A DNA stretch of 64,000 bases, taken from assembly GCA_041648595.1 (NCBI GenBank), contig JBAZOQ010000003.1:1042-65041 (forward strand), in the 5' to 3' direction. A program made the position numbers and the translations under genes. The notes beneath the pieces are model-generated. The model saw only the letters and a list, made by a program, of their open reading frames with translations, did not search any database and was not told the origin of the DNA. The first letter of the stretch is position 1; every line of letters begins with the position of its first letter. The DNA comes from Minisyncoccota bacterium (lineage in GTDB: Bacteria; Patescibacteriota; Minisyncoccia; Phycocordibacterales; UBA9973). Shown here piece by piece: positions 24,859 to 42,070 of the stretch.

Positions 24859-24864
24859 ATTAAC

Positions 24865-25614: not shown

Positions 25615-25688
25615 ATTTTTATTATATCAGTTCTTCGTCCAATACACCTGTAGCAAAAAAGAACCATATTTCTATGGCTCTTTTTCAA

Positions 25689-25752: not shown

Positions 25753-26059
25753 TGACTTGAGGTCGTATAAAGGAACTGAAGTAAAACGGATCGAAAACAT
25801 TGTAGATTCTGAAATCCTTAATCCCCTTTCAATGATACCAGAATTCGGAGAATCTAAAAAGTAACGTGCTTTTACCCTACACCCCTATGACACTATATCT
25901 CTGCAAAAATACCGCCAGCCATGCACAATTAGAGACGAACTCGGATTATTCCGACCCCCTTGTCATATGGGGATACAGCTACAAAAATACCCCATCTTAT
26001 GTATAGAGTCTGCTACTCGACATTAATCACTAAAATACCCCTATTTATAATGGTTTTAG

Positions 26060-26356: not shown

Positions 26357-26383
26357 TTTGTTATTTTAATTGTTCATGTGTTT

Positions 26384-26713: not shown

Positions 26714-27195
26714 ACTAACTTCTTTGTCTCTTTATCATAATAAAACATTGAAATGTCATTCTCTCGCAAAAAAGCTCCATAATTATACTCTAGCTGTTCT
26801 GAAGAAGAACCAATCCCTCCGTAATGTTTATCGACAAGAAAAGAAACATAGGTGTGAACCATTTCTTTAAGCTTGCCACCCTCAGGTGAATTCATAAAAT
26901 TAGGAATATTTTTTAGTTCTTCTTTGTCTTTTGTAAGTATAAATTTAAAACAATCATTGCTAAGAACAATGACATTCATTGGATTTATTCCTCCTCTCAT
27001 GCCAGGAAGTGTTTCTTTAATATAATCTTCAATAGCGTTAAGATGTCTTTTTAAAAATACTCGAGCATTTATTGCTATTTCTTTATCTATCTTTTCTTTT
27101 TTATCGATAGATTTATCAGCAGAATTTCCCATAGCTATAAAAAATGCAAAGAAAACAACAATAACGATTATGACTGCAAATAAATTTGTTAACAT
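26710..27195 (-). CDS. Hypothetical protein with N-terminal TM anchor
   Basis: 161 aa; overlaps the downstream ORF by 4 nt. Confidence 0.3.
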   Translation of the reverse strand: MLTNLFAVIIVIVVFFAFFIAMGNSADKSIDKKEKIDKEIAINARVFLKRHLNAIEDYIKETLPGMRGGINPMNVIVLSNDCFKFILTKDKEELKNIPNFMNSPEGGKLKEMVHTYVSFLVDKHYGGIGSSSEQLEYNYGAFLRENDISMFYYDKETKKLV

Positions 27196-27408
27196 AAATA
27201 ATTAATTTTTAGCTAATAATTTCTATCACAAACTTATAACCTAAAAGGAGAGGACGTGGAATAAAAAATGATAAGCCTAATCTGGCTAGTGAAATTTAAA
27301 TATATAGTTCCTTCAAATATTATTCGAATTAATACTTGAATGTTATTAAATCTAGATTAATAACAACATCCCCTCTTTACAAGTTACAAATTTGAACGCA
27401 AAAATCCC

Positions 27409-27497
27409 TCTACCAGGTAGACCCGAAGGTCCTATGTCAGTTTCCCGACATAACGCGAACAGCGACCCTGATAAAGGGATTACTACGCTGTTCGCGA
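27409..27497 (+). ncRNA. Candidate structured RNA: four consecutive hairpins in a 660-bp ORF-free divergent intergenic region (identity unknown, strand uncertain)
   Basis: ctaccaggtag; gaccCGAAggtc; atgtcagtttcccgacat; gcgaacagcg-[ccctgataaaggg…]-cgctgttcgc (10-bp perfect stem with nested hairpin). Confidence 0.3.
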
Positions 27498-27856
27498 TTT
27501 TACTAGCGCCATGCAAATATAAATATTTGTTTAGGCTCTTATTAAGTTTTACTCACTTTACAATTATACCATCTAGCTATTAAAACAAACAATGGCCTCA
27601 AAAGCTGTAATTTTTTTGAGAAATTTTTTTAGCCTTTGGTTTTTAGAATCCAAGATTTAACCAAAAAACACAAATGGGTACGTTTCTCTAGTACTACTAC
27701 CATATTCAATTTCCAAATAGACAACCCCCCTATCTCACTATTTTTAATACTCAATTATAAATATTTAAAAACTATTTAAGTGAAGCAAATTATTAATAAC
27801 AAAAATGCTTCACAACATGTTGGTCGGCATGAATTATTAATTAATCATTTAACGTT

Positions 27857-28180
27857 ATGAAATCAATAAAAGAGATATTAGAAGGTCCCGAGATAAGCAA
27901 TTTTTCGGGAAGCGATAAAACCCGTTCCATCGTAGAATCTGAAATTATTTCTCGATGGGGTAAAAGTGAATTGAAGAACTATGATCCATTAAGGTCAACT
28001 CTCACAGCAAAAACTTGGATTATGAAATTCGGGATGATTCCAAAGAAGGGCGAAAAAGCAATAAGATCATTTGTTGTATTAGAAACACGTGATACAAGAG
28101 ATCCAACGAAAGTTATTAAACGCATAAAGAGTGTCTATCTCTTCCATTATAGGCAGGTCACTGAATTAGCTAAAAGATAA
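27857..28180 (+). CDS. Hypothetical protein
   Basis: 107 aa ORF. Confidence 0.3.
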   Translation: MKSIKEILEGPEISNFSGSDKTRSIVESEIISRWGKSELKNYDPLRSTLTAKTWIMKFGMIPKKGEKAIRSFVVLETRDTRDPTKVIKRIKSVYLFHYRQVTELAKR

Positions 28181-28367
28181 CATGAAGAAAATAAATACGA
28201 TAAGTTATCAAAATAGACACGGGACTAGAAATATCAGACCCACCGCTCCAAAGCTAATGCTAGCTAATTTCTATCTGAAAAACATTTCGGGGTTTGATAT
28301 TTCAAGCAAAGTAAGTGTCGAGTACTTACCTAACAAAATCATTATAAATAAAATCTAATTAAACATT

Positions 28368-28952
28368 ATGAATCAAAATTATAAAAATGAGATCCCTTCT
28401 ACCTACAAAAGAGAAAGGTTAAATCCTATTCAAGAAGAGATAGCTAAGAACGTCGGAACTTATAATCTCACTGCTGTAATAGAAGAAGACAAGGAAACAC
28501 TTTCAAAGCTTAAGAATATTCCAAACTCAATCTGTTTCCTTTGCACCTTAAAAATTGGAAATGAAGTAATAGGAATAGGTCGTGGAAGTGCAAACTTAAA
28601 CCGTATGAATCGTGGGATCGAAAGAGGCGTTAGGTATAGTTTCGGAAATTCCATCGTCGATTCCGTCGTTAGAGGAATTAAGAATCTTGATGCTTTATAT
28701 TTCAACACAATAAATAAACCTGAAAATAAAATTCAGGAAGAAGTTGATCTTGAAGGTCGAGATTCTCCAGCTTTCTTTGGTGAAGATGATATGCCACAAA
28801 TTGCAACGGAAAAACAGTTAAATTTTGCAAAGAAATTAATAGCAAATTGTGGCGATAATGAGAAAGAACAATATCTTGAACAAATATCTTCACCTTACTT
28901 CAGCAAATTCCAATGCTCTGAGCTTATCCAAAAGCTTATGCCAGTAAGATAA
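28368..28952 (+). CDS. Hypothetical protein
   Basis: 194 aa ORF. Confidence 0.3.
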   Translation: MNQNYKNEIPSTYKRERLNPIQEEIAKNVGTYNLTAVIEEDKETLSKLKNIPNSICFLCTLKIGNEVIGIGRGSANLNRMNRGIERGVRYSFGNSIVDSVVRGIKNLDALYFNTINKPENKIQEEVDLEGRDSPAFFGEDDMPQIATEKQLNFAKKLIANCGDNEKEQYLEQISSPYFSKFQCSELIQKLMPVR

Positions 28953-28976
28953 ATTATTAACCTAATATAAAAAATT

Positions 28977-29201
28977 ATGAACACAACAGCTAGTTTGGAA
29001 ACTCCCCGACATAGTTTCTTCTTAGAAGATACAGATGAGCCAGGAATGGCAACAAGCTATCAAAAGAGAACTATCTACCGTCTTTTGTGTGAAAACATGG
29101 AGGACGGAGAAAGCAGAGAGATAAATATTAACCAAATTCCTTATGTCTCAAAAGACGAAGCTACTCTTTGGATTAAAGAGTTGGAGAATTCAATTTGGTA
29201 G
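28977..29201 (+). CDS. Hypothetical small protein
   Basis: 74 aa ORF followed by a hairpin terminator. Confidence 0.3.
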   Translation: MNTTASLETPRHSFFLEDTDEPGMATSYQKRTIYRLLCENMEDGESREININQIPYVSKDEATLWIKELENSIW

Positions 29202-29215
29202 AATAGACAACATTC

Positions 29216-29247
29216 AAAGGTGGTCCTTAACTGGTCCACCTTTTTTG
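29216..29247 (+). terminator. Rho-independent terminator (ggtggtcc-ttaact-ggtccacc + T-run)
   Basis: Read directly. Confidence 0.55.
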
Positions 29248-29401
29248 TTGTTATTTTAGCTCTTCGTCTATCTTTGCTTTTATTTTAATTATTACACTAT
29301 CTATGTCATACGCAGGATAATCTTCTCCCGCTTGAGCTATTTGTTGACTTACCATATCATTGTATATTTCCCACAAAAACTTGATTGTTTCTTTATTCAT
29401 T

Positions 29402-30454
29402 TTATTTTAAATTTTTAAGTTTATTTTTAACTTCATCTTCTCTTATTTGAACAAGGGGAGATTTAAAGTAATAAGCACTAACCTCTTCTAAATTACCCGA
29501 TATTCCTTTATTTAAAGCTAATTTCATGTATCTAACAACATCAACAATACATCCAGCACTATTAGGACTATCTTCAACAGACAATTTAAGATCAAGTTCA
29601 AAAGGTACATCACCAAACTGAGTGCCTTTCACATTAATATAACAAATCTTATTATCTTTTAAATGACTAACAAAATCTGATGGTCCTATCCTCGTAGAAA
29701 TTTTCTCTCCTTCATCAAGATTAGAAACAACTGCTTGTGTTTTTGATATTCTTTTACTTTCTAAACGAGACTTATTTAGCATATTTCTAAAATCAGTATT
29801 ACCACCTATGTTTAATTGATATGTATTATCTATTTTAAAACCCCTGTCTTGCATTAACCTAGTAATTATTCTGTGAAGAATAGTAGCCCCAACTTGAGAT
29901 TTTATATCATCTCCCGCACAAGGTAAACCTTTTTCCTTAAATTTATCTATCCAAGCTTTATCCGAACATATAAATTCTGGAATTGCATTTATAAAACCAA
30001 CACCAGCTTCTAACGCAGATTCTGCATAAAATCTAGCCGCCTTGGCACTGCCAACAGGTAAATAACATACAACCATTTCTGCTTTTGAATTCTTTAAAAT
30101 CTCAACAATATTGGATGTTTCTTGATTGTCGTCGATAAGAAAATATTCTCCCATTGTATTAGAAATTCCATCTAAAACATTTCCTTTATTTACTACTACA
30201 TCCTTATGGGGTATATCAGAAAACTTTTTTGTACAATTTGGCTCAGAAAATATTGCTTCTGATAAATCTTTCCCAACCTTCCTCTTATCAACATCAAAAG
30301 CGGCCACGACTTCTATATCACTCACACGATAACCTCCTATTGTCTCATTTATTAAGCCATTTTTATTATTTAAATCCTTATAAAATTCAATACCCTGAAC
30401 TAAAGAACTTGCACAATTACCTACCCCTACTATAGCTATTTTTATTTTTTCCAT
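29402..30454 (-). CDS. ino1: myo-Inositol-1-phosphate synthase (bacterial/archaeal short type)
   Basis: N-terminal IAIVGVGNCASSLVQGIEFY matches the conserved MIPS NAD-binding signature; 350 aa. Confidence 0.85.
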   Translation of the reverse strand: MEKIKIAIVGVGNCASSLVQGIEFYKDLNNKNGLINETIGGYRVSDIEVVAAFDVDKRKVGKDLSEAIFSEPNCTKKFSDIPHKDVVVNKGNVLDGISNTMGEYFLIDDNQETSNIVEILKNSKAEMVVCYLPVGSAKAARFYAESALEAGVGFINAIPEFICSDKAWIDKFKEKGLPCAGDDIKSQVGATILHRIITRLMQDRGFKIDNTYQLNIGGNTDFRNMLNKSRLESKRISKTQAVVSNLDEGEKISTRIGPSDFVSHLKDNKICYINVKGTQFGDVPFELDLKLSVEDSPNSAGCIVDVVRYMKLALNKGISGNLEEVSAYYFKSPLVQIREDEVKNKLKNLK

Positions 30455-31382
30455 ATAATTTTTTAATTAAAACATTAATTCCATCTAGTTTCTTTGACTT
30501 TTTGTAAATTTTGCTGATTTGCAAACTGGTTAAATCCTTATTAAAACTTAAGTTAAACCTTAAAATATCTCTTAATGTAGCATACTGCTCAAACTCTTGG
30601 AAATCAAGCACTTTACCACTTGAAATTTCTTTATAAATTTTAGGGAAAACAGTAACAGGGTTTTGTTGTAATAAATGCAATTTATCTATTTCATTAAATA
30701 ACCATTGAATGAATTTTAAATAATCAGAAAAAGATAGATAAATTCTAATCTTGTTAATAAAAATCAACAATAAATTAAATCCTGTAAAATAACGTTTTTC
30801 TTTATCAGATTTTTTAGCATGAATTTCATCCTTTCTCCTAAACTCAAACCACTTTCCATCTTTACGGTACAAAGGTGGTGTAAAATCATTGTAAATAAGT
30901 TTACCCCTAGAATCTATAAAAAAATTATCTGGATTAGGATCGATAGAACATATTAATTGATTAAGATATAAATTACGTCTAGAACTTGTTAGTTCTATTA
31001 TCGACTTAGAAATAGCTTTAAAATATTTTACTTTCTGAGTAGTTGTTTTAATTTCAACCACTTTCCCTTTTGGAAAATATTCTGTTATTAATAAAATGGT
31101 ATTTTGTTTTATATTAATTTCAGTAAGAAAAATTTTAGGCAAACCTATCACTCTTAAATGTTTTTTTAAAAGATTATAGAAAACATGTAGGTTTTTTTCT
31201 AAAGTAATTAACTGTTGAGTAGATAAATTATATTGCTTACCAACTTTTCTAACTACATAGTATTTACTATGCCATCTATATAAAGATGCTTCATTGTGAA
31301 TACCTCTACTATTAGAATTAAGTTTTTTTATTAACTTTCCCTTATTTATGACTATTTGTATGTCTTTTTGATTATTTCTCAT
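30417..31382 (-). CDS. Hypothetical protein (possibly kinase-like fold)
   Basis: 321 aa; overlaps ino1 by 38 nt; no firm motif. Confidence 0.3.
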   Translation of the reverse strand: MRNNQKDIQIVINKGKLIKKLNSNSRGIHNEASLYRWHSKYYVVRKVGKQYNLSTQQLITLEKNLHVFYNLLKKHLRVIGLPKIFLTEINIKQNTILLITEYFPKGKVVEIKTTTQKVKYFKAISKSIIELTSSRRNLYLNQLICSIDPNPDNFFIDSRGKLIYNDFTPPLYRKDGKWFEFRRKDEIHAKKSDKEKRYFTGFNLLLIFINKIRIYLSFSDYLKFIQWLFNEIDKLHLLQQNPVTVFPKIYKEISSGKVLDFQEFEQYATLRDILRFNLSFNKDLTSLQISKIYKKSKKLDGINVLIKKLYGKNKNSYSRGR

Positions 31383-32427
31383 CTACAATTGGCTTTATAA
31401 TATCACCTAGCTTTTCCAAAGAAATAAAGGTAACGCCGTTTGATTCTCTTAAAGCTCCTACAACTTTTACTTTGTCACCAGTTTGAATAAAATCTTTTAA
31501 AGACCAAATTCCAGTAACAACATCTATTTTCTGATTCTCACTTTCTATAGAAAAAACTCTTGGTAAATTTGAAGAAAGTGAAGTATCAAGCGCTGTACCT
31601 TCTATGGAAATATCGTGTATCTTTTTAGAACCAACAACTATTGGTATTTTTTTATTAGGATCATTAGATGGCAAAGCACAGTTAAGTGAAAGCTTAATCC
31701 CAGGATTCAGCATATAACGCCTACGTCTAGTAAACATAATTTTTGCTTCTGCTTCAGTAAGGTTGAATTTCTTCATATAATACTCAACATACTTCTCAAA
31801 CCTTGATGTATCACCAAAATCAATACCTATTTTATTTCTTAGATTTTCATCCCTTTCTAGAGATTCAACCACCCGTTGCAAATCATTTGGACCATAAATT
31901 ATTAAATCTATATCAGGCTTATTGGAATAAGTAAAATCTTTCATAAACCGAGAGCCAAATAATCCAAAATCTACATTTTTAAATTCCGACATTAAACGCA
32001 TTAAGGATTCTGTGTCTTCTGGTTTACCATGTTCTAAAAATAGCTTAAGATTGTCTCTCCCTCGTAGTATTTGAGTATTATTCTCGAAGGGCATAGCTAA
32101 AAAGCTTAATTCTGACGAAGGATCATAAACAACATAATAATTCATTTCTTCTGAACTTGAAGCTGCTTCTATCCCCTCCTTATATCCATATAACTTTTTT
32201 TTCCACTGCTCAGGTCCATGACTTTTAAAATAAGTTATTGCAGTAGGAATCCTGATAGTTGATTCTTGCCCTTTTTCATTAACCACTTCACAAACAAAAT
32301 TATCCTGAACAAAGCCAATTCGTTCTATATCTTTTTCAATATGAATTAAAGCATCATAAGGACGTGGATCGTCTTCTTTCTGTTCCCTAACTTTATCAAC
32401 GAAGAATTTAGGTGTTTCCTGGGGCAT
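31372..32427 (-). CDS. Nucleotidyltransferase-domain protein (Pol-beta superfamily)
   Basis: GS…DID motif (FGLFGSRFMKDFTYSNKPDIDLIIY). Confidence 0.5.
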   Translation of the reverse strand: MPQETPKFFVDKVREQKEDDPRPYDALIHIEKDIERIGFVQDNFVCEVVNEKGQESTIRIPTAITYFKSHGPEQWKKKLYGYKEGIEAASSSEEMNYYVVYDPSSELSFLAMPFENNTQILRGRDNLKLFLEHGKPEDTESLMRLMSEFKNVDFGLFGSRFMKDFTYSNKPDIDLIIYGPNDLQRVVESLERDENLRNKIGIDFGDTSRFEKYVEYYMKKFNLTEAEAKIMFTRRRRYMLNPGIKLSLNCALPSNDPNKKIPIVVGSKKIHDISIEGTALDTSLSSNLPRVFSIESENQKIDVVTGIWSLKDFIQTGDKVKVVGALRESNGVTFISLEKLGDIIKPIVDEK

Positions 32428-32430
32428 ATT

Positions 32431-33414
32431 TTAAATATTATCTAAATTTATAACAAGTCCATTCAAACCAATTAGTTTTGTATCTTTACTAGTTGATTCT
32501 TTAATAAACTCATTTACTTTTTGTGGGTATTCAGGACCCAAACATCCATGAGGATTAAAATGCTCAAAAAGACCAAGTTTGACTTTTGAATCGCGCAAAA
32601 CTTCTACAGCATCAGATACAGTAGAGTGATAAAAATTATGCTTAGTATATTTTCTAAACTCCACATCATGTAAATTAAAAACCAACAAATCAATTTCACT
32701 GAAAACTTTCTTTAATCTTTCATTAAAAGTTCCTGGTCCTTCTATTTCTTTTTTATCTGCAATCTTCTCCAATGCTGATAGTTCTCTGCCGTCAGCAGTC
32801 TTATATGTTGCATTAAAACCAGTGTCTCCAGTATATCCAACTTTTAATCCATTTAAATCTAGAACGAAACCAAAAGATCCACCAATTGAATGTACAACCT
32901 CTATGGGCTTAAGTTTAATATTGTTACCTAAATTTATTTCTTCTGCCTTATTAAGCACGGTAAGTTTATTATCACTTGATGGAGAGAAGTGATATTGACC
33001 AATAACTTTTTCATCTAAAGTATTTTGTGACATCAAAACATTCAACCCAGAATTCTCACGATAAGAAGCCATTTCAGCAATTAAATCAGCATCATTACTA
33101 TGATCAATATGAGCGTGAGAAATAAATAGAGTGTTGGTGCGAGCTAAATTTACACCAATTCTTTCCGCTCTTTCTAGTATGTTGATTCCAGGATCAACCA
33201 TCATTTCTAAATCGTTGTATTTAATATAGAACCCAGACCATAAAGGCTTTAAGGCACTATTCCACTTATAGTCAGGATTAAATTGTCTACCCAAAAAAGC
33301 TATAAAATTACCTTCTATCTTATGGGGCATTTCTCCGAGTTCTTTTCTGAGAGTATTAGATACATCTCTTGCTTCTTTTGATAGTTGTTTTAACTCAGTG
33401 AAATCAATAGGCAT
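32431..33414 (-). CDS. Metallo-beta-lactamase fold hydrolase
   Basis: HxHxDH motif (SHAHIDHSND). Confidence 0.65.
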   Translation of the reverse strand: MPIDFTELKQLSKEARDVSNTLRKELGEMPHKIEGNFIAFLGRQFNPDYKWNSALKPLWSGFYIKYNDLEMMVDPGINILERAERIGVNLARTNTLFISHAHIDHSNDADLIAEMASYRENSGLNVLMSQNTLDEKVIGQYHFSPSSDNKLTVLNKAEEINLGNNIKLKPIEVVHSIGGSFGFVLDLNGLKVGYTGDTGFNATYKTADGRELSALEKIADKKEIEGPGTFNERLKKVFSEIDLLVFNLHDVEFRKYTKHNFYHSTVSDAVEVLRDSKVKLGLFEHFNPHGCLGPEYPQKVNEFIKESTSKDTKLIGLNGLVINLDNI

Positions 33415-33421
33415 AAATTTT

Positions 33422-34066
33422 TTATTTTATATTAAGGTTAATAGCTATATCTTCTAACATTTTGTTGATTATTGCAACTAAAGATTTGGAATTATCTAAT
33501 AAATAAACTGTCGGAAAATTCATTTCTTCCTTTAAAATTTCATCAACTTTTAATAAATTAATAAATTCTTTGTCAGAAACATTACGTGGATTTCTTGTAT
33601 CACTATTTTTTAATTGTTTCCTATACTTTTTTGGATCGGTAACTAGAATATGAAATTGAATTATTTGATTATTTAAGTAACGAGTCAACAACTGAACACC
33701 TTCTATAATACAAGAAACACCACCTGCATTATACTTTTTAATCATGAAATTAATCACTTTACTTATAATTAAAGATTGCTTTTGTAAATCAATAACACTA
33801 AGGGGAGAAAAGTAATTATTCATCTTTAGAAAATCTTTATTTTTTGGTTCCATTGAAATCAATGTCTTCACTATCGCACCCAACCCAATACGTTGTTTTA
33901 TTTCTAAAATATTCGACAGGTGAAAAGCAAGAGTGGTTTTTCCCACACCATTAATACCAGAGATTACAATAATTAACGGACGCTCTCCATTTTTTATATG
34001 TTTTTTAATTTTATTCGCTAAATTATAATTTATTTTTTCCATAAACTGAGCTAAAAAGTTTCTCAA
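33422..34066 (-). CDS. P-loop NTPase / small-molecule kinase-like protein
   Basis: Walker A ISGINGVGKTT. Confidence 0.5.
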   Translation of the reverse strand: MRNFLAQFMEKINYNLANKIKKHIKNGERPLIIVISGINGVGKTTLAFHLSNILEIKQRIGLGAIVKTLISMEPKNKDFLKMNNYFSPLSVIDLQKQSLIISKVINFMIKKYNAGGVSCIIEGVQLLTRYLNNQIIQFHILVTDPKKYRKQLKNSDTRNPRNVSDKEFINLLKVDEILKEEMNFPTVYLLDNSKSLVAIINKMLEDIAINLNIK

Positions 34067-35225
34067 CTTTTTTTATTTGTTTATTTAATTCGAATTCGTT
34101 TTTGACAACGGAGTATGCATTTTTCACTAAACGATCTCTCAATTTTCGATCTTTGTAAAGTAGATTAATAGATGAAGCAAGTTTCTTGGGATTTTTAATT
34201 GGCACCAATAAACCCGTTTTATTATGTTTAACTACTTCATTAACTCCTGGAATATTTGTAGCCAAAACTGGCTTCTTCATAGACATTCCCTCTAATAAAA
34301 CTATACCTAATCCTTCAGAATACGAAGGCAATACCATCATATCAGAAAGCGCATAAACCTTTGGCATATCTTCAATAAGAAATTCATCCACCTTTATCTT
34401 AACATTATTTTCTATCTTTAGTTCCTTAATAAGCTTTAAAACAAGTTTACTAAATTTATCATTTGTAGAAAGGTTGCTTGTTGGTATTAAAAGTTTAATA
34501 TTTGGAATTGTTGTTTTCTTTAACATACTAACTGCTTTTAAAATATCTAAAATTCCTTTTCTTTCAATCAATCTAACAGGACAAAGAACAATAAAATCCT
34601 CGTCGTTAAAACCATACCCTTTCCTGTTTATTTTTATTTCAAAAGAAAACTTTTTCATATCTACGCCATAATAAATATGGTGAGCATTTTTCACTTTTTC
34701 ATCAATATTCTTTTTTACTGTATTTAAATAATTATTACTACAAGCTAAATAAGCATCAAAAGATCTTTGTTTAAAAATAAATCTTGCTATAGATAGTTCA
34801 AACTCCAAATTTCCAGGCCAAATACCAACAAGCTTATTTACATCCAACTCTGGAGTAGAATGATAGCTAAAAATATGTTTAGCTCGTAAACCATCTTTAA
34901 TCATAGAAATTAACAAACAAGGAATATAACCATTTGAATAAATAATATCAGGATCAAACTTTTTTAAAACTGTAAATGATTCTATCAATAAGTCCCGAAA
35001 GGGGGCTTTCATTTTTATTGCTTCGCGAAAAAGAGGCATTCTAATAACCTTAAAATAAGATGATTTATAGTCTTTAATTCTTAATTTTAAAGAATCAGGA
35101 ACTTCCCCCGTCAAAACTAAAACTTCATGTCCCAACTTACCCAACCCGACAGCTAGGTTATATTGATACGTTTGGGCTCCCCCTATAATAGGCGGAAAAC
35201 TATGAGCGTAAATACAAATTTTCAT
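34023..35225 (-). CDS. Glycosyltransferase family 4 (GT-B, group 1)
   Basis: N-terminal HSFPPIIGGAQ…, C-terminal EGLGIVLLEGMSMKKPVLATNIPG (E-X7-E region). Confidence 0.8.
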   Translation of the reverse strand: MKICIYAHSFPPIIGGAQTYQYNLAVGLGKLGHEVLVLTGEVPDSLKLRIKDYKSSYFKVIRMPLFREAIKMKAPFRDLLIESFTVLKKFDPDIIYSNGYIPCLLISMIKDGLRAKHIFSYHSTPELDVNKLVGIWPGNLEFELSIARFIFKQRSFDAYLACSNNYLNTVKKNIDEKVKNAHHIYYGVDMKKFSFEIKINRKGYGFNDEDFIVLCPVRLIERKGILDILKAVSMLKKTTIPNIKLLIPTSNLSTNDKFSKLVLKLIKELKIENNVKIKVDEFLIEDMPKVYALSDMMVLPSYSEGLGIVLLEGMSMKKPVLATNIPGVNEVVKHNKTGLLVPIKNPKKLASSINLLYKDRKLRDRLVKNAYSVVKNEFELNKQIKKVEKLFSSVYGKNKL

Positions 35226-35284
35226 ATCTTTATTAAAACGTCGTTAGTTACTTAATAATTTATCCATGTTTTTACTAAAAATTT

Positions 35285-36193
35285 TTAATCTTTTACCCAA
35301 AAATCACTCGGTAGGGATTTTATAAAATTAAAAACTTTTGATAAATATTCCAACAAGCCAGGATATTCTAATACATCTTCCAATAATTTAGTTTGTTCTG
35401 AATTTATAGAATCTGGTAAAAATTCTTTATCCACCCCATTTATATTTGTAGTAAAAATTTGTCTTTTAGGATCAAATTTTACAAATTGAATCACCTCTTC
35501 ATCTCTTGTATTTAATATTTTTAATTCACGAGGTACTTGTATAAAATGTTTAGTTAATTGCTGGCACCACTCAACACCTAATGGATGAATATCAAATAAT
35601 CTTTCTCTGCGTTTATTTTTTTGTGGATTATACGCTTTCTGAATAAATTTAGCACCTTCAACGCTTGCTATTTCAGAATTCCAATCCTTATAAACAGAAG
35701 ATACTCCTGGGATAACTGGTACTGGTTTAGAAAATTTCCAACTTGGCTCTAAAACAAATACTTTTAAACCATTGGATTCATTGGCATACATTGGAGTAAT
35801 ATGCCTAAATTTTAAAAACTCAGCTTGTCGTTTAGTATAATCTTTTTCTTCTGGAAACCTCCCAATAATTGTCGTAGGTACTCCAATGTCTGCTAACATT
35901 TTTTGACACAATATAGCAAAATCAACACAATTGCCAGATTTTTCACTTTGAATAAAATCAGGGCTTTCATAATCCCATTTTTCCAATAACTTCACACTAC
36001 CAGACGGATCAGTCTGGGTTTCATTTGCCAAATCTGCAAGTTTCCCAAAATGAGAAAAGGTATTAAAACGATAATCTTCTGAAATCCGTAACAAAACTTC
36101 AGATATTTTCCTGAGTTGAGATTCTAAATTTTCTCTATCAATTTGTAGGAATTGCTTATCTATGTTTATAACTCTTTCAGGTCCTTTTTCCAT
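35285..36193 (-). CDS. Hypothetical protein
   Basis: 302 aa ORF in operon. Confidence 0.3.
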   Translation of the reverse strand: MEKGPERVINIDKQFLQIDRENLESQLRKISEVLLRISEDYRFNTFSHFGKLADLANETQTDPSGSVKLLEKWDYESPDFIQSEKSGNCVDFAILCQKMLADIGVPTTIIGRFPEEKDYTKRQAEFLKFRHITPMYANESNGLKVFVLEPSWKFSKPVPVIPGVSSVYKDWNSEIASVEGAKFIQKAYNPQKNKRRERLFDIHPLGVEWCQQLTKHFIQVPRELKILNTRDEEVIQFVKFDPKRQIFTTNINGVDKEFLPDSINSEQTKLLEDVLEYPGLLEYLSKVFNFIKSLPSDFWVKD

Positions 36194-36202
36194 AGTTAAA
36201 AA

Positions 36203-37252
36203 TTATTTTAAAGTATTATTAAAAATTCCAGATTTAGCTATAAAATGTTTGTTTTGTAATATCCATTCATACATAGTTTTTATCCCTTGTTTGGGAGTAA
36301 TACATGGAACCCAATTAAAATCTTTTTTAGCAGATGAAATATCTGAAATATAAACTTTCTGATCTGCCAACCGCCAAGGCTTTAATTTATAACCAAACTT
36401 TTTACCAGAAATACTTTTTAAAATTTCAAAAAACTCTAAAATCGAAACCGCAGATTTTAAGCCCCCGCCAATTGTATAAGCTTTCCCTCTTGTTTTTTTA
36501 ATATTTTTGAAAGCTAGATCAAAAGCATTTACTAAATCATCAATATGTAATACATCTCTAACCTGCTTACCATTGCCATATAAAGTTAAAGGGTGATTAA
36601 AAACCAAAGAACTAATAAACCAAGCAAGCCATCCTTGCCCCTCTATACCAAATTGTCGAGAACCATAAATACATGACTGTCTAAAAACTATAGTATTTAA
36701 TTTATAAATTCTTGCATAATCTAAAACATATTGATCCCCGCATCCCTTTGAGCATCCATATGGACTACAAAAATCTAATGGTTGTTTTTCAGAAATACCT
36801 TTTATGTTTTTAAAAACATATTTACTTTTTTCTTCTCGGATAGGTATATCAGCTAATTCTCCCATTACTTTATTTGTACTAGAATAAATTAAAGAGGCTT
36901 TCGGCGCTCCACTTCTCATTGCTTCTAGCACATTGAAGGTTCCCAGAGCATTTATTTCAAAATCTTCTTTTGGATTTATGATTGATCCAGTTACTGTCGT
37001 TTGAGCTGCTAAATGTAAAATTAAATCTGGTTTAAATTCTTTAAAAACCTTAGCCAAAGAATCCCCGTTTCTAATATCTATTTTCTTAAAAGAAAATTTA
37101 CCTTTAAGTGTTCGTAGCCACTTTAAATTTTGTTCAGAACCAACTCTACTTAAATTATCTACCGCAAGAACTTGATAGTGTTTATTAAGGTAATATTCAG
37201 CGACGTTTGCACCAATAAAGCCACAACCACCAGTGATGAGAATTTTATTCAT
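36203..37252 (-). CDS. NAD-dependent sugar epimerase/dehydratase (extended SDR)
   Basis: GGCGFIGANV Rossmann motif, YxxxK (YGCSK). Confidence 0.8.
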   Translation of the reverse strand: MNKILITGGCGFIGANVAEYYLNKHYQVLAVDNLSRVGSEQNLKWLRTLKGKFSFKKIDIRNGDSLAKVFKEFKPDLILHLAAQTTVTGSIINPKEDFEINALGTFNVLEAMRSGAPKASLIYSSTNKVMGELADIPIREEKSKYVFKNIKGISEKQPLDFCSPYGCSKGCGDQYVLDYARIYKLNTIVFRQSCIYGSRQFGIEGQGWLAWFISSLVFNHPLTLYGNGKQVRDVLHIDDLVNAFDLAFKNIKKTRGKAYTIGGGLKSAVSILEFFEILKSISGKKFGYKLKPWRLADQKVYISDISSAKKDFNWVPCITPKQGIKTMYEWILQNKHFIAKSGIFNNTLK

Positions 37253-37292
37253 ATATTCTTGTATTTAACCATTTTTTATGAATAAAATCAAT

Positions 37293-37751
37293 TTAAGTGG
37301 CAATATAAACCTCCAACTTTTCAATAATACCATGATCTTTCTTCCCTCTTGTATTAATACGATATCCGTCTTTTACACTAAATCTATATGCTTTCAAAAA
37401 ACTCTTTGGTGTTAAAGTAAGAGTATCTCTGTTTTTATACTGAACCAACTCTAAAAAATCATTAATTATTTTATCTCTTATTAATATATTTTTTGAAGCA
37501 AACCCAACCTTCTTACCCTCAAACTCAAATTCATGTTCTTTTTCGTTGATTAAAGAAAATCCCCTAGATTCAAAAAGATTTTTAAATTCTTCCCATCTAT
37601 CATTAACAAACTCATCTTCTATTAAAAGATCAATGTCTTCAAAATCCTTAAAATTACCAAGATAATTAGCCACACCAAACGAACCATAAATTACTGGTTT
37701 TATATTTAACTCTTTTAGTATTTCTAAAATTTTAGATAAAAATTCATTCAT
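37293..37751 (-). CDS. Minimal nucleotidyltransferase-fold protein
   Basis: YGSFGVANYLGNFKDFEDIDLLI (GS…DxD). Confidence 0.45.
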   Translation of the reverse strand: MNEFLSKILEILKELNIKPVIYGSFGVANYLGNFKDFEDIDLLIEDEFVNDRWEEFKNLFESRGFSLINEKEHEFEFEGKKVGFASKNILIRDKIINDFLELVQYKNRDTLTLTPKSFLKAYRFSVKDGYRINTRGKKDHGIIEKLEVYIAT

Positions 37752-37777
37752 AAATTATCTTTTTATAGTTGTTGTGA

Positions 37778-38269
37778 TTATTTTTTAAATTCATTAAACA
37801 CCATAATATCTCTTAGTGAGCTATCTTGCGGCACCTTTTTATATTCTGCCTTAATTCTTTTCAAGGCTGTTTCTATTTTTATTTCTATCGGTTTCGTTCC
37901 GACATTCAATTCTGCATCAGTAAGTTTCAATTTTTTCTGCCTACCTTTTGTTTTTGCCATATAGTATGTTATGTGTAAAACATATTCTTTTCTAATATTT
38001 TCTATGAAACCAATACATTTTATATTATTAATTTCATAGCCTGTTTCTTCTAATATTTCACGTTTTATCGCCTTGATATTGCTTTCATTCTTCTCCACAG
38101 TTCCACCAGGCAATTTTAATATATGCTTTATTCCATAACCATCTTCTTCTATGCAAACTAACGTATCCTTGTCTTTATAAATTAAACCTCTAACTTTCTT
38201 ACGAATTGAAAGTTTAGCTATCTTCTCTCTAAAAAAATTATGTTCATTTATAATTCCAATTTTTTTCAT
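37778..38269 (-). CDS. NUDIX hydrolase
   Basis: Nudix box GGTVEKNESNIKAIKREILEETGYE. Confidence 0.75.
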   Translation of the reverse strand: MKKIGIINEHNFFREKIAKLSIRKKVRGLIYKDKDTLVCIEEDGYGIKHILKLPGGTVEKNESNIKAIKREILEETGYEINNIKCIGFIENIRKEYVLHITYYMAKTKGRQKKLKLTDAELNVGTKPIEIKIETALKRIKAEYKKVPQDSSLRDIMVFNEFKK

Positions 38270-38730
38270 ATAATATTTTTTAACTCAGACAATGTTTCTA
38301 TTATAAAAGTCGGAATACCAGTTTCATCATTGGGTAATTCATTAGCAAAAGGTCCAGCTTGTAGCCAAGCTGTCGGGTGACCATTTTTATTTCCATATTT
38401 AATACTTTTTACTATTCTGTCATCCACAAATAATATTTCGTCTCTTGATACATTTATTTTTTTTACTAAGTTGTCCAACATCTCATCTTTTTCTTTAACG
38501 TCAGACACTTCTAGCATATCAAGATATCTACCCAACGATGAATTTTCTATTTGTTTTTTTCTTTCTTCTACGCTATCTCCAGTGAGGGGTCGCGCCAAAG
38601 AAGCAACGCACATTTTATAACCTTTTTGTTTGCAATATAATAAAACATCTTCTGAATCAGAAATTTCTTTTTTATTATCAACATCATATAAAGTTCTTCC
38701 CCAATCAAAAATTATTGCTTTTATATTCAT
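38266..38730 (-). CDS. HAD-like hydrolase (degenerate motif I)
   Basis: N-terminal IIFDWGRTLYD, later LFVDDR. Confidence 0.4.
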   Translation of the reverse strand: MNIKAIIFDWGRTLYDVDNKKEISDSEDVLLYCKQKGYKMCVASLARPLTGDSVEERKKQIENSSLGRYLDMLEVSDVKEKDEMLDNLVKKINVSRDEILFVDDRIVKSIKYGNKNGHPTAWLQAGPFANELPNDETGIPTFIIETLSELKNII

Positions 38731-38735
38731 AGAAT

Positions 38736-39623
38736 TTAAAATAATTCCTTAAACATTTTGTATCCCTTCTTAAACTTACCACGTCCTCCTTGAAATGGGG
38801 AAATCATTGTCCAAAGAGGGATTCTTTTATAATACATCATTGACCGTTTTAAAAAATCTTTGTCTTTATGACCTTTGTAATTTTTATACACTTCTAGGGT
38901 AAATTTCTCTCCATAATCCCACATTTCAGTAAAATCTCTCGCTGGATCATCTATTTTTCTATCAGAAAAATCTATAATCCCTGAAATATATTTTTTATTT
39001 TTTCCCAGAAGTATGTGTTTGGAATAAAGATCGTTATGCATAAGCACTTTTTGGGGAAATTTTAAATAATTTTTAAATTCTTTTAAATAGTCATTTATCA
39101 AAAGCTGATCTTTTTTTGAAACTCTTGGAAAAATGTATTTATTTGTGTTGATTATTAACTCTTTATATTGTTTTTGGCTATTTACTTTTTTGATATCAAA
39201 TCGTTCGGCAACCTTAAGGGGGGTTTCATGCAAAGAAGAAAGAAGGTCCGCAATTTGTTTAGCAAGCGTATGTTTTGCTTTAGTGGACACCAACTTAAAC
39301 ACTTTTTTCCTTAACTGTATTCCGGGAATCAGAGAATACCCAGCAAAACTTTTATCTTTTGCAATATAAGTATATTGAGGAATAGAAATACTAACTTTTT
39401 CCTTTAAATACTCAAGCAGGAGTATTTCTTTTTTTAATGCCTTTAAATATTGCTTGGCTCTAGGAAAACGAAAAACATATTTATTATCCAAAATAATTAC
39501 ATAATGATCCCATCCTTCTATATTATGCTCCACCTTGTCCCATTTTAGATTAGGAAATTCTTTGTGTATTTTGTTTAATAATTTTCTTTTTTCCATAATT
39601 TTTTTTATTTTAAAAACACCCAT
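38736..39623 (-). CDS. Aminoglycoside-phosphotransferase/choline-kinase-family small-molecule kinase
   Basis: Catalytic-loop HNDLYSKHILL and IIDFSD (APH Brenner/DFG-like motifs). Confidence 0.65.
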   Translation of the reverse strand: MGVFKIKKIMEKRKLLNKIHKEFPNLKWDKVEHNIEGWDHYVIILDNKYVFRFPRAKQYLKALKKEILLLEYLKEKVSISIPQYTYIAKDKSFAGYSLIPGIQLRKKVFKLVSTKAKHTLAKQIADLLSSLHETPLKVAERFDIKKVNSQKQYKELIINTNKYIFPRVSKKDQLLINDYLKEFKNYLKFPQKVLMHNDLYSKHILLGKNKKYISGIIDFSDRKIDDPARDFTEMWDYGEKFTLEVYKNYKGHKDKDFLKRSMMYYKRIPLWTMISPFQGGRGKFKKGYKMFKELF

Positions 39624-40042
39624 TTCTTCATTAATTTTCTTGCTTCTTCTGTAAATTTATTTGGGTCTAGATTATATTTAGAAGCAATAAATTTCAATTT
39701 CTCAATTTTTTTTGGATTACGAACTTCTTTTAATTTTACATTCTTATCAATTTTTCTTCCTAAAACTCTATAAAATCCATAACGTAAAGAATATTTTGGA
39801 AACATATACAAAAGTCCTACATAAAAATTAGTTTTACTGAGTGGAAATTCTATATCGGTATGCCCAGACCAGTGTGCTCTAGTGTAAGTATAGGCGACAT
39901 CCGATAATTCACTCCATTTATTTATTAACCCCTCCGCTTCTTCAAGTTCTCGCAGTTCTTCCAAAACATCGGCTTGATGCCAATAATAATCTTTTATTGG
40001 CATGTCTAAAATTGAATGCCATTTGTTAATAATTGTTTTCAT
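39605..40042 (-). CDS. Hypothetical protein
   Basis: 145 aa ORF overlapping the downstream gene by 19 nt. Confidence 0.3.
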   Translation of the reverse strand: MKTIINKWHSILDMPIKDYYWHQADVLEELRELEEAEGLINKWSELSDVAYTYTRAHWSGHTDIEFPLSKTNFYVGLLYMFPKYSLRYGFYRVLGRKIDKNVKLKEVRNPKKIEKLKFIASKYNLDPNKFTEEARKLMKKWVFLK

Positions 40043-40045
40043 ATT

Positions 40046-40492
40046 TTAATTGTGTATATCTATATATCTAACTTTATCAGAGATAATATTTCCTTTTTTA
40101 AAATCTTCCCATAAACCATTGGGTTTGATGGGCGTTGTCCCAGCAGGCTCCAACCAACACACTTCTGCAATTTCATGTGCATGTGTAGTTTTAAGATGCC
40201 CGATATTTAAATAATCTTTTCCATTAGTAATTTCAAAGAAAAATTCAACAGACTGTCTTATCTCTCCATCCATAAAATTATTTATATAAAGCAATCTCCC
40301 AATTTCAGGAATAACCCCAAGCTCTTCAACCATTTCACGCCTTAAACATTCTTTTATATCTTCTTTCCACTCAACATGCCCACCAGGCAAAGCACAAAAA
40401 CTCGTGTCATGTGGATGCTTCACACCCAAAAGCTTACCTTCATAAATAATAATACCCCTTGTTCTAACAACAAATTTTTTATCTTTTTCCAT
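40046..40492 (-). CDS. NUDIX hydrolase (paralog of 10350..10826)
   Basis: GGHVEWKEDIKECLRREMVEELGV; near-collinear similarity to the island NUDIX. Confidence 0.75.
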   Translation of the reverse strand: MEKDKKFVVRTRGIIIYEGKLLGVKHPHDTSFCALPGGHVEWKEDIKECLRREMVEELGVIPEIGRLLYINNFMDGEIRQSVEFFFEITNGKDYLNIGHLKTTHAHEIAEVCWLEPAGTTPIKPNGLWEDFKKGNIISDKVRYIDIHN

Positions 40493-40496: not shown

Positions 40497-42044
40497 TTAT
40501 TTCTTTTCTTTAGGAGAAACCTCGTCGTCCCCTCCTTCTAATAATTCTAACCCTTTCACTGGACCAAAAGCGTTATTACCTAATTTCCCTTGTATTGATC
40601 CTACAATATTTGCAGTTCCAATAAATATTTTTTCCACTTGCGCATCTCTAACTTTCCAAGATTTTTCAAAAGCTACCCTTTCCTTTGTAATTTGATCTTT
40701 CATTTCTTTATAAGTTTCAACCATTGATTCAACTTGCTGTCTAAATTCATGACTAGTTACATATCCATATAATGTTTCAGCTAAAGTTCCTTGTTTTTCA
40801 GCTTGTGCATTAACTAAAGCAACCTCCAACAGCTGTCTCCTTAATACATGTGAGACAGAGATAGCTAAGGATGGTTTACAAATCCAAACTCCATCCTTAT
40901 TTCCGAAACCTGAAACAGCTTCATCTGGTAATACCATACTTACAATAACTGGAATATGTGCAGCCTCAGCTCTTAAATTTACTTTCAATTTAGGAATCCA
41001 ATCCTTGCCCCAATTTTGCACCCTTTTAGATTCCCATAGTATCACTCCACAAACCTTTCCCGAATTTGATCTTACTTTTTGTCTTACATCTGCCCCCTTA
41101 ACTCCTTTTCCGACTGGTTCGATAATATCTTGCGGAAATGCCTCCTTTAAACTAGCCTCTAGGTCCAATTCTTGCACCTCTCCTTGAAGTTGTTGCGATC
41201 CTTGTTCTGCTTTCCTTTTTGCATCATTTAACTGAGTAATCAAGTCAGCCATTTTCTTTTCACTTTCAAGTTCACGGAAATGATATTCGTCACCTATACG
41301 CTTACTTACTTCATTTTCAATTTTACCCTTTTCTTCTGAAATTTTCCTAGCGACTTCAAGCTCTTGAGTTTTCATTTTTTCATCCAACTCTCTTTCTTTA
41401 TTTAATAGAGATAACTCACGTTTCTGAGCCTCCTTTAGCTTTGCATTTTTTTCTGCAACTTGTTCTTCTAATATTTTTTTTTCTGCTTCTTTCTCTTTTT
41501 CAACATCTTCTAATTTTTTCTGTAATTTTATTGTATCAGTTCCATTTTGTTTAATGGCACGAGTAAAAGCCTCTTCTTCTATACCCTTACGCTCAGCATC
41601 AATTATTTTAGCCTTTTCCAATTCAAAACCCTTTCTCTCTTCTTCAAGTTTTTTTCTTTCCGCGCGAGCCTCAAGAGATTCAGCAGTTGCTTTTTCTAAT
41701 TTCTTATCCTTCTCTTTCATCTGATCCTCTAAAAGTTTAATTTCAGCAGCAGTTTGTTTTTCAGCGGCCACTTGTGCATCTTTCCATAATGCCCTTTTTT
41801 CTATTACAATTTTTTCCGCTACCTTCTTATTTATTTCACTTTGGGCATTTTTCTGCGATTCCTCCAGTTTTGCTTTTTCTTCTGCTATTTCTTTTTTCTC
41901 TTTTGCCATTTCAGCTTCTTTAAGCTTATTCTCTTCACTAATTTCTTTTTTTAGGTTTTCTTCAATTTGATGTGTCAATACATCATCAATTGATATTGCT
42001 GCTTTGCAGTTGGGGCATATAATATTTTTTGTGTCGTTTTTCAT
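40497..42044 (-). CDS. Zn-ribbon + long coiled-coil protein (DUF2130-like architecture)
   Basis: N-terminal CPNCKAAISIDD, ~250 aa E/K-rich coiled coil, conserved C-terminal globular domain. Confidence 0.45.
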   Translation of the reverse strand: MKNDTKNIICPNCKAAISIDDVLTHQIEENLKKEISEENKLKEAEMAKEKKEIAEEKAKLEESQKNAQSEINKKVAEKIVIEKRALWKDAQVAAEKQTAAEIKLLEDQMKEKDKKLEKATAESLEARAERKKLEEERKGFELEKAKIIDAERKGIEEEAFTRAIKQNGTDTIKLQKKLEDVEKEKEAEKKILEEQVAEKNAKLKEAQKRELSLLNKERELDEKMKTQELEVARKISEEKGKIENEVSKRIGDEYHFRELESEKKMADLITQLNDAKRKAEQGSQQLQGEVQELDLEASLKEAFPQDIIEPVGKGVKGADVRQKVRSNSGKVCGVILWESKRVQNWGKDWIPKLKVNLRAEAAHIPVIVSMVLPDEAVSGFGNKDGVWICKPSLAISVSHVLRRQLLEVALVNAQAEKQGTLAETLYGYVTSHEFRQQVESMVETYKEMKDQITKERVAFEKSWKVRDAQVEKIFIGTANIVGSIQGKLGNNAFGPVKGLELLEGGDDEVSPKEKK

Positions 42045-42070
42045 ATTTTTTTATTTTATAAATAATTTTT

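Follow-up and report, generated by a model that had tools for sequence, protein, structure and literature searches.

In a 64,000-nucleotide stretch of DNA from a Minisyncoccota bacterium (contig JBAZOQ010000003.1; hereafter the window), eight consecutive genes on the minus strand (g07-g14, positions 29402-37252) form a unit that is conserved in Paceibacteria/Nomurabacteria and occurs in a few dozen bacteria of the candidate phyla radiation (CPR). The eight genes probably belong together as a single unit for the biosynthesis of an inositol-linked glycoside or glycoconjugate. More tentatively, and with a little less than even confidence, we read them as a self-contained, horizontally mobile cassette that would most likely make soluble, variably decorated hexosyl-myo-inositol(-phosphate). 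The source organism is a CPR bacterium: the closest relatives of its gene for myo-inositol-1-phosphate synthase (MIPS; g14) come from metagenome-assembled genomes of Candidatus Nomurabacteria, and g13 is 100% identical to a protein annotated as Candidatus Paceibacterota.

The extent of the unit became clear from synteny. A scan of a genome collection for MIPS yielded 80 loci, against which we ran all window proteins by tblastn. Among these loci, only L002 and L003, both from Nomurabacteria, carried more than MIPS, and both carried exactly g07-g14, in the same order and at 56-84% identity. Homologues of g12, g08 and g13, the contigs encoding them and a metagenome scan supplied further loci, giving about 15 independent loci with usable context. 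The full set g07-g14 was syntenic at 42-96% identity in L089, L002, L003, L082, L093 and L088. In L089, a 93%-identical relative, nucleotide homology began at the ATG of g07 and ended at the stop codon of g14; the sequence past the MIPS stop could not be aligned, and the sequence upstream of the epimerase gene was unrelated. Thus, the initial annotation of this DNA was right that a MIPS-linked cluster with a family 4 glycosyltransferase (GT4) and an epimerase is conserved in CPR bacteria, and orthologues of the eight-gene core are not scattered among relatives.

The loci fell into three variants. Variant A, found in the window, L089, L002, L003, L082 and L093, consists of an epimerase, the arylamine N-acetyltransferase (NAT)-like g08, GT4, a P-loop kinase, a metallo-beta-lactamase-fold hydrolase (MBL), a nucleotidyltransferase (NTase), a protein-kinase-like (PKL) kinase and MIPS. 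L088 has the same gene set, but g08 precedes the epimerase and MIPS is convergent. Variant B (L098, L091, L086, L087, L092 and L103) has no g08 and carries, after the PKL kinase, a 212-amino-acid His_Phos_1 phosphatase and an antisense S-adenosylmethionine-dependent methyltransferase, neither of which has a homologue anywhere in the 64-kb window. In variant C (L101:1178-2809), a NodU/CmcH-type carbamoyltransferase occupies the g08 slot between epimerase and GT4. One slot therein is given over to lineage-specific tailoring (NAT-like protein, carbamoyltransferase, or histidine phosphatase plus methyltransferase), whereas GT4, P-loop kinase, MBL, NTase and PKL kinase were never missing in any variant and the epimerase usually stood in front. 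A natural fusion of a g13-type PKL kinase with a His_Phos_1 phosphatase (P0258, L103:2595-4106, 503 amino acids) supports a functional link between the kinase and the phosphatase of variant B. The flanks of the cassette differed in every locus, and insertion sequence (IS) elements adjoined it in L093, L097 and L101, in the last case as an IS200-like transposase after the cassette; an IS element also adjoined the MIPS locus L005. MIPS adjoined the cassette in 12 out of 15 informative loci and was missing nearby in L087, L092 and L097. Being the terminal and most dispensable gene, inverted in L088 and relocated in L093 to the inside of the module, between MBL and NTase, it is not the centre around which the initial annotation took the operon to be built.

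That annotation had described a twelve-gene co-directional operon. The minus strand at 29251-40492 does hold the co-directional, tightly packed open reading frames (ORFs) on which this rested, namely 14 ORFs of 145-400 amino acids and one of 49 amino acids (g15), adjacent ORFs overlapping by up to 38 nucleotides or lying 1-59 nucleotides apart. However, the genes it listed numbered 14 plus a small ORF, and synteny supports only the eight of g07-g14. Such packing could also have arisen by genome streamlining, with unrelated genes pressed together and no functional unit at all. Packing and co-direction are indeed general in the window, where 44 out of 54 ORFs of at least 120 amino acids lie on the minus strand, and the tight string goes on upstream of g01 with a DUF2130 gene (4-nucleotide gap) and a gene for a 1550-amino-acid AAA_11/AAA_12 helicase (26-nucleotide gap). 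Because these two genes abut the same string, tight packing is no proof of a functional unit; g01-g06, DUF2130 and the helicase are equally tight yet not syntenic elsewhere. In a consensus scan of 28.8-42.3 kb, promoter-like sites were scarcer than in shuffled sequence and terminators about as frequent as chance predicts; such a scan is uninformative in DNA of 30% GC. We therefore took the boundaries of the cassette from comparative data (Table 1). These data refute streamlining for g07-g14, which keep their order and overlaps over about 15 loci, at identities down to about 40-50% and in varied genomic contexts, and three of whose families (g08, g12 and g13) occur essentially only within the eight-gene block. 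As an account of the cassette, streamlining is thus highly improbable; for g01-g06 it stands.

Table 1. Genes of the minus-strand string (positions are those of the window)
Gene	Position	Strand	Assignment
g01-g06	37293-40492	-	NUDIX, 145-amino-acid hypothetical, APH(2'')-like kinase, small HAD, NUDIX, ANT(2'')-like mini-NTase; neighbours outside the cassette
g01	40046-40492	-	NUDIX
g07	36203-37252	-	CDP-tyvelose 2-epimerase-like short-chain dehydrogenase/reductase (NDP-hexose C2-epimerase); first gene of the cassette
g08	35285-36193	-	Arylamine N-acetyltransferase fold, 302 amino acids; accessory tailoring gene, variant A only
g09	34023-35225	-	Retaining glycosyltransferase of family GT4, nearest to BshA-type enzymes that glycosylate small-molecule acceptors
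g10	33422-34042	-	P-loop kinase, distantly 2-phosphoglycerate-kinase/APS-kinase/nucleoside-kinase-like
g11	32431-33414	-	Metallo-beta-lactamase-fold hydrolase, Lactamase_B_2/RNase Z/Apyc1 branch
g12	31372-32427	-	Pol-beta-superfamily nucleotidyltransferase with C-terminal OB fold, 351 amino acids; new family
g13	30417-31382	-	Protein-kinase-like (APH/ABC1/Kdo-kinase-type) small-molecule kinase, 321 amino acids; new family
g14	29402-30454	-	Myo-inositol-1-phosphate (inositol-3-phosphate) synthase; last gene of the cassette
g15	29251-29400	-	49-amino-acid ORF after MIPS

The domain labels first given to these genes held for both NUDIX proteins, the aminoglycoside phosphotransferase (APH)-like kinase, the epimerase (an SDR, or short-chain dehydrogenase/reductase), GT4, MBL and MIPS; they held too, with weak matches, for the haloacid dehalogenase (HAD) and the P-loop kinase and, with a match exactly at cut-off, for the mini-NTase, and g12 could be labelled an NTase only through matches of its family and a motif. 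Two core proteins left as hypotheticals resolved into a NAT fold (g08) and a PKL kinase (g13), and the epimerase proved to be specifically CDP-tyvelose-2-epimerase-like. With a PKL kinase beside the g12 NTase, the core thus carries its own kinase and nucleotidyltransferase pair. Profile searches against the PDB for g08, g10, g11, g12 and g13 returned superfamily-level or non-significant matches only.

By its sequence, g14 is a bona fide short-type MIPS. It matched PF01658 (E = 1e-30) and, over its full length, TIGR03450 (E = 4.8e-127; 424 bits, below the 638-bit equivalog cut-off), and it aligned with Ino1 of M. tuberculosis (1GR0) at E = 8.8e-108, as expected of an Ino1-type enzyme. The GT4 protein g09 matched Glycos_transf_1 (3e-37) and Glyco_transf_4 (3e-17) in Pfam, its best PDB matches were BshA structures (2JJM, 3MBO and 5D00; E about 1e-19, full length), and a GT4 of its type was found in every cassette locus. 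In the Moranbacteria locus L007, genes for an NTP_transferase, a GT4 with 37% identity to g09, a NUDIX protein and MIPS stand in a row, which links the g09 lineage to MIPS independently of the g10-g13 module.

The epimerase domain of g07 matched at E = 1e-50, and its best PDB matches, both full length, were TaTyvE (9RL0, E = 1.7e-104) and StTyvE (1ORR, E = 1.8e-93), with dTDP-glucose dehydratases and GalE matching far less well. By oxidation and reduction at C2, TaTyvE turns CDP-glucose into CDP-mannose and back; its signature is made up of Thr124-Tyr164-Lys168, the segments TNK and VAM, and Gln205 (PMC13098431). We found the SDR Thr-Tyr-Lys triad (Y165xxxK169), TNK (126-128) and the closing-loop glutamine (Q206, within GQGW at 205-208) in g07. 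The sugar-contacting VAM segment, by contrast, is replaced after HLA[AG]Q by TTV in g07 and its cassette orthologues (TTL in L082). Genes for CDP-3,6-dideoxyhexoses (RfbF, G, H, I and S) are absent near g07.

The variant A tailoring protein g08 had no match in Pfam, PF00797 included, or in NCBIfam, and its family numbers 20 members among 5.8 billion proteins. Its AlphaFold2 model is confident (predicted local distance difference test [pLDDT] 91), and the top 20 Foldseek matches in the PDB were all arylamine N-acyl/acetyltransferases (E down to 1.5e-7, TM 0.5-0.59). C89, H131 and E149 are invariant in the family, E149 being placed as third triad residue by spacing alone. Going by the model, g08 is a probable acyltransferase with a Cys-His-(Glu) triad.

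Between GT4 and MIPS lies the four-gene module g10-g13. The start of g10 at ATG 34042 is backed by orthologues, whereas the mechanical ORF starts at TTG 34066. The protein matched weakly AAA_18 and 2-phosphoglycerate-kinase-like families (NCBIfam PRK04220, 4e-10, far below cut-off), and its profile matched APS kinase (2.4e-4), NRK1 and PezT in the PDB; the Walker A motif GxxGxGKTT is invariant. Homologues of g10 also occur near MIPS in L005. The MBL protein g11 matched PF12706 (1e-13) and, far below cut-off, the RNase Z family of NCBIfam (E = 1.4e-11). All metal ligands of the MBL superfamily are invariant (H100, H102, D104 and H105 of HxHxDH, H175, D197 and H259/H263), and g11 is a probable phosphoesterase. 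Its gene always stands directly upstream of g12, even in the remote loci L084 and L104.

Taken alone, g12 had no Pfam match, and NTP_transf_2 weakly matched 29 out of 31 members of its family. Residues S159, D172 and D174 are invariant, and G158 nearly so (at least 90%), in 72 diverse remote relatives, which places the Pol-beta motif hG[GS]-x(9-13)-DxD in g12. The g12 profile matched the poly(A) polymerase Trf4 (4.6e-4), TUT7, MntA and kanamycin NTase in the PDB. Foldseek identified the C-terminal domain as an oligonucleotide/oligosaccharide-binding (OB) fold (RPA and LysRS) in a model with pLDDT 65, the N-terminal 115 residues lying outside or being poorly modelled. Among 5.8 billion proteins, 33 belong to the family, and an exhaustive hidden Markov model search reached 161 representative clusters at E<=0.001; proteins of about 300-350 amino acids make up the majority of the 150 listed. 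Two of four sampled remote clusters with a name or taxon were archaeal, with the names 'predicted nucleotidyltransferase' or 'hypothetical protein'; the profile had no relatives among viral contigs. One remote relative (P0162, 640 amino acids) is fused to a polyprenyl synthetase. At the locus encoding an archaeal relative annotated as Caldarchaeales (L107:4931-8649), two tandem g12-like NTase paralogues lie beside a 535-amino-acid Kdo/WaaP-family kinase, so the pairing of NTase and PKL kinase may be ancient.

The module is completed by g13, whose catalytic loop SIDPNPDNF (D148 and N153) and metal-binding D166 are invariant even in the 27%-identical member of L084, the pattern of a PKL kinase. 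Sub-threshold ABC1 matches occurred in 5 out of 8 members of the 45-member family. Against protein kinases in the PDB its profile was not significant (E = 0.17), and in hhalign comparisons with g03, the APH of the window, and with an archaeal Kdo-family kinase only the catalytic loop aligned, again without significance.

The folds of g11 and g12 also allow a reading in which the module acts on a macromolecule, in end-processing, repair or modification of RNA such as tRNA, with GT4, epimerase and MIPS either glycosylating the target or standing functionally apart. The OB fold matches RPA and the anticodon-binding domain of LysRS, the NTase profile comes closest to Trf4 and TUT7, g11 has its RNase Z match, and animal enzymes of the GT4 family are known to glycosylate tRNA queuosine. 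None of these similarities, however, goes beyond a weak match between superfamilies. In every case the module comes with a glycosyltransferase, and mostly also with a nucleoside diphosphate (NDP)-sugar epimerase and small-molecule tailoring enzymes, and the cassette holds no RNA-binding or RNA ligase partner. We consider action on RNA very unlikely.

The module has relatives beyond the cassette. In two loci from distant Patescibacteria (L084:9032-13558 and L104:260-6950), MBL, NTase, PKL kinase and P-loop kinase occur together at 27-39% identity; both adjoin a GT9 glycosyltransferase and have neither GT4 nor MIPS, and L104 also has an SDR and an APH. Since the module is found there with GT9 but without MIPS, it tracks the glycosyltransferase, not inositol. 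A divergent gene set with GlmS-like, aminotransferase and NagB-like members lies alongside the module in L084.

We propose the following scheme for the cassette. MIPS would convert glucose-6-phosphate to inositol-3-phosphate, which would serve as acceptor. The g10-g13 module would make or recycle a nucleotide-hexose donor from hexose phosphate by the logic of NDP-heptose synthesis: an anomeric kinase would form a bisphosphate, the phosphoesterase would strip the distal phosphate, and the NTase would activate the sugar, with the second kinase feeding in sugar or nucleotide. The TyvE-like g07 could then invert C2 of the NDP-hexose (gluco to manno type), and GT4 would link the hexose with inositol phosphate, a counterpart to the transfer of GlcNAc by MshA. 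In variant B the histidine phosphatase may trim the product, for which glucosyl-3-phosphoglycerate phosphatase is a precedent. Finally, depending on lineage, the product would be acylated (by the NAT-like protein, as in this window), carbamoylated or methylated.

Several points weigh against this scheme. We infer its enzyme activities from sequence, and we know of no Pol-beta NTase that makes NDP-sugars from sugar-1-phosphates; g12 itself is nearest to RNA-tailing enzymes, MntA and aminoglycoside NTases, and its OB fold is of a nucleic-acid-binding type. Against the equivalog models, g09 scored 69.3 bits for MshA (TIGR03449, cut-off 462.5), with only its C-terminal half aligned, and 86.8 bits for BshA (TIGR03999, cut-off 273.7). 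With TTV where TyvE has VAM, g07 may act on a substrate other than CDP-glucose or CDP-paratose. No phosphatase is encoded inside the variant A cassettes, that of this window included, and three loci have no MIPS near theirs. NAT-fold enzymes normally need an amine acceptor, yet there is no aminotransferase in the cassette to go with the amine that g08 suggests. No transporter or regulator was conserved with the cassette among the loci compared.

The same genes could also be read with inositol as the activated partner: g10-g13 would make NDP-inositol, the SDR would invert the carbon adjoining the linkage (myo to scyllo type), and the glycosyltransferase would transfer the cyclitol(-phosphate). 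GDP-valienol in the acarbose and validamycin pathways, or CDP-inositol in di-myo-inositol-phosphate synthesis, offers a model for such logic. Gene sets for NDP-heptoses and NDP-cyclitols comprise a precursor synthase, kinase, phosphatase, NTase, SDR epimerase and transferase, a series that the cassette parallels; in addition, MIPS lies inside the module in L093, and the change from VAM to TTV points to an unusual substrate. A retaining GT4, however, needs an oxocarbenium-like transition state, which is impossible for a saturated cyclitol, and the known pseudo-glycosyltransferases use unsaturated cyclitols and belong to families other than GT4. Moreover, the module also occurs without MIPS (L084, L104, L087 and L092), and the phosphate made by MIPS would be directly usable by a cytidylyltransferase, leaving two kinases unexplained. 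Because of the transition state and of the modules without MIPS, we prefer inositol as acceptor over NDP-inositol as donor, and activation of inositol seems to us quite unlikely.

A further question is whether the product of the proposed scheme, or its NDP-sugar, is an end in itself or a precursor of an envelope glycan, hexosyl-inositol-phosphate or NDP-sugar feeding a wall polymer, a glycan of the S-layer or of proteins, or the head group of a glycolipid through membrane enzymes encoded elsewhere. GT4 and GT9 are families typical of envelope glycan synthesis, surface glycans commonly bear carbamoyl, acetyl and methyl decorations, and some neighbours fit: the cassette is followed by UDP-xylose-synthase-like and UDP-glucose-dehydrogenase-like genes in L090, by a GT2 and an acetyltransferase in L088, and by secreted and sortase-like proteins in L003. 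These flanks, however, are different in every genome, and among the genes conserved with the cassette there is none for a polyprenyl-phosphate transferase, a flippase or a polymerase, nor for any other membrane protein. None of the cassette products has a transmembrane segment (no 19-residue window exceeds a Kyte-Doolittle mean of 1.45), and all are predicted from sequence to be cytoplasmic and soluble. We regard an envelope precursor as unlikely, and retain the soluble glycosyl-inositol as our preferred reading.

The genes upstream of the cassette do not share its conservation. The two NUDIX genes, g01 and g05, are recognizable as such (E = 5e-14 and 1e-9). The APH-like g03 matched PF01636 (1.5e-16) and scored 100 bits against the APH(2'')-IIIa model of NCBIfam, whose cut-off is 625; the small HAD protein g04 matched weakly, below cut-offs; and the mini-NTase g06 scored 21.0 bits for PF10706, exactly at cut-off and over half of the model, and we counted neither g03 nor g06 as an aminoglycoside-modifying enzyme. 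None of g02, g03, g04 and g06 recurred beside any other cassette locus, and L089 has no g01-g06 upstream. NUDIX homologues of g01/g05 lie loosely near the cassette, 2.5 kb upstream in L093 and 1.5 kb downstream in L091, and NUDIX genes unrelated to g01/g05 are found near the cassette or MIPS in L086 and L007. Thus, the APH-like, aminoglycoside nucleotidyltransferase (ANT)-like, HAD and NUDIX genes that had suggested aminoglycoside-type tailoring are all outside the conserved cassette.

At the other end, a 50-amino-acid ORF had been placed at 29249-29400. An ORF of 49 amino acids is present (g15), but it has no family match, tblastn found it only in the identical contig L001, and it is not conserved even in L089; it is probably not a gene, or is strain-specific. 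A hairpin (AAAGGTGG ... CCACCTTT) with a plus-strand T-run at about 29215-29250, between the convergent gene 28977-29201 (plus strand) and the end of MIPS and the 49-amino-acid ORF, is likely a terminator. In the gene-poor stretch downstream of the cassette, we found an Rfam LOOT RNA (RF03000) at 27419-27537 on the minus strand (67.9 bits, gathering score 46.4).

The minus-strand genes next upstream of the string (40497-46723) encode the DUF2130 protein, a weak PADLOC match to LmuB (E = 2e-5), and the 1550-amino-acid helicase, which ends in a C-terminal Top1-type zinc ribbon; the two may be a defence or conflict pair unrelated to the cassette. PADLOC returned no match for g06-g13 or g02, and we rejected the reading of the cassette itself as a defence island.

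Elsewhere in the window, positions 46746-53586 look like a mobile element integrated at a tRNA gene. The region holds plus-strand hypotheticals, an AAA_25 protein (49450-51477) and a large serine recombinase (51926-53551) whose 3' end overlaps tRNA-Asp (53512-53586, minus strand), and it has a GC content of 0.36, against about 0.30 elsewhere, and an inverted GC skew. A search near tRNA-Asp and the recombinase gave no convincing att-type direct repeats. An island-like stretch (9966-29200) lies between two tRNA-Thr genes (9966-10039 and 20087-20160) and the cassette, and contains NUDIX, HTH/SocA_Panacea, ResIII helicase, Fic, an rve-type IS transposase (23615-24514), peptidase S51 and numerous short hypotheticals. 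On both sides of the transposase and beyond stand imperfect 50-nucleotide repeats (22427, 24809 and 25706). A separate sugar-modification cluster at 228-5408 (plus strand) encodes an RmlD-like protein (239 amino acids), an NDP-hexose C-methyltransferase-like protein (Methyltransf_13/14, 416 amino acids), a 517-amino-acid protein without assignment and a PMT_2 membrane glycosyltransferase with TPR repeats (558 amino acids).

CPR bacteria (Patescibacteria) are thought to be minimal in biosynthetic capacity, and to our knowledge very few biosynthetic clusters of any kind have been assigned to them. The cassette is conserved and mobile, and diversifies through its tailoring enzymes. On the proposed scheme it would commit glucose-6-phosphate to inositol and spend ATP and NTP through four dedicated enzymes, a cost from which it follows that the product should be worth it to a streamlined cell, be it as protectant, redox buffer, surface determinant or interaction molecule. 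Three families (NAT-fold, NTase/OB and PKL kinase) have no Pfam models and could carry out new chemistry, such as the activation of nucleotide sugars or cyclitols by a Pol-beta-type enzyme. In its boldest form, which we judge unlikely, the module would be a route, so far overlooked and non-orthologous to those known, by which a sugar or cyclitol is turned into an activated nucleotide derivative; combined with MIPS, the TyvE-like epimerase and GT4, it would yield lineage-specifically decorated glycosyl-inositols, the first specialised metabolites assigned to Paceibacteria, borne on a horizontally mobile cassette and possibly serving episymbiosis. Because the cassette spans 7.9 kb and all its products are predicted to be soluble, it is directly testable by heterologous expression.

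No known inositol pathway, whether for mycothiol, bacillithiol, di-myo-inositol-phosphate (DIP), phosphatidylinositol (PI) and its mannosides or aminocyclitols, matches the cassette end to end. Our literature searches on CPR MIPS operons, TyvE with inositol and MIPS/glycosyltransferase/NTase clusters found no description of such a cluster in the library of papers searched. The suggestion that it has no obvious known counterpart was therefore borne out. With mycothiol and bacillithiol synthesis the cassette has in common an Ino1-type MIPS linked to a retaining GT4 with BshA as nearest solved relatives, and the chemistry expected of both is an NDP-sugar joined to an acceptor that is small and phosphorylated or acidic, with a phosphatase acting next (in variant B). 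The donor of the thiol pathways is UDP-GlcNAc, whereas that of the cassette is probably a C2-epimerised CDP-type hexose, and the cassette has four invariant enzymes beyond the thiol set (two kinases, NTase and MBL). We found no MshB (LmbE/PIG-L deacetylase), MshC Cys ligase or MshD in the 15 ORFs, the cassette genes or the scanned proteins of other loci, and no BshB- or BshC-like genes. In the absence of deacetylase and Cys ligase, we rejected a thiol pathway of this kind.

DIP and PI pathways (IPCT/DIPPS, PI/PI phosphate synthase and PimA) resemble the cassette in having MIPS as the source of inositol-3-phosphate and an NTase, but the NTase of the cassette is of the Pol-beta family, not IPCT. 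None of the 15 ORFs had a Pfam match to the CDP-alcohol phosphatidyltransferases of DIPPS and PI/PI phosphate synthase, and with neither such a transferase nor membrane proteins we rejected DIP or PI synthesis. Decoration with phospho-alcohols of the Lic type (LicA/LicC/LicD/Pce) was rejected as well: g12 has no match to LicD, and a cytidylyltransferase is absent.

Clusters for cyclitols and aminoglycosides (kasugamycin, streptomycin and acarbose) would share with the cassette a pseudo-disaccharide of cyclitol and sugar, if the proposed product is right. Its PKL kinase and Pol-beta NTase share the APH and ANT folds, and its lineage-variable O-carbamoyl (as by TobZ), methyl and acyl tailoring is similar. 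By contrast, the cassette has no inositol dehydrogenase, aminotransferase or amidinotransferase, and no conserved transporter or resistance gene. Neither inositol dehydrogenase nor aminotransferase was found in the window cluster, among flanking called genes with Pfam matches or in the ORFs scanned, and the aminocyclitol-like product initially suggested is therefore not indicated.

The NDP-heptose pathway (GmhA, HldA/HddA, GmhB, HldC/HddC, HldD and GT9) offers the same logical set of kinase, phosphoesterase, nucleotidyltransferase, SDR epimerase and glycosyltransferase, and the remote modules of L084 and L104 do adjoin GT9. The folds differ, with PKL in place of ribokinase/GHMP, MBL in place of HAD and Pol-beta in place of a Rossmann-type cytidylyl- or adenylyltransferase. 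No orthologue of GmhA, of a ribokinase/GHMP kinase, of a HAD phosphatase or of a Rossmann-type NTase was detected in the cassette, so the resemblance is one of logic only. In addition, the cassette has an extra P-loop kinase and has MIPS attached. Thus, set against these systems, the cassette is an inositol-glycoside-type biosynthetic cluster that holds an undescribed four-gene module and three undescribed protein families.

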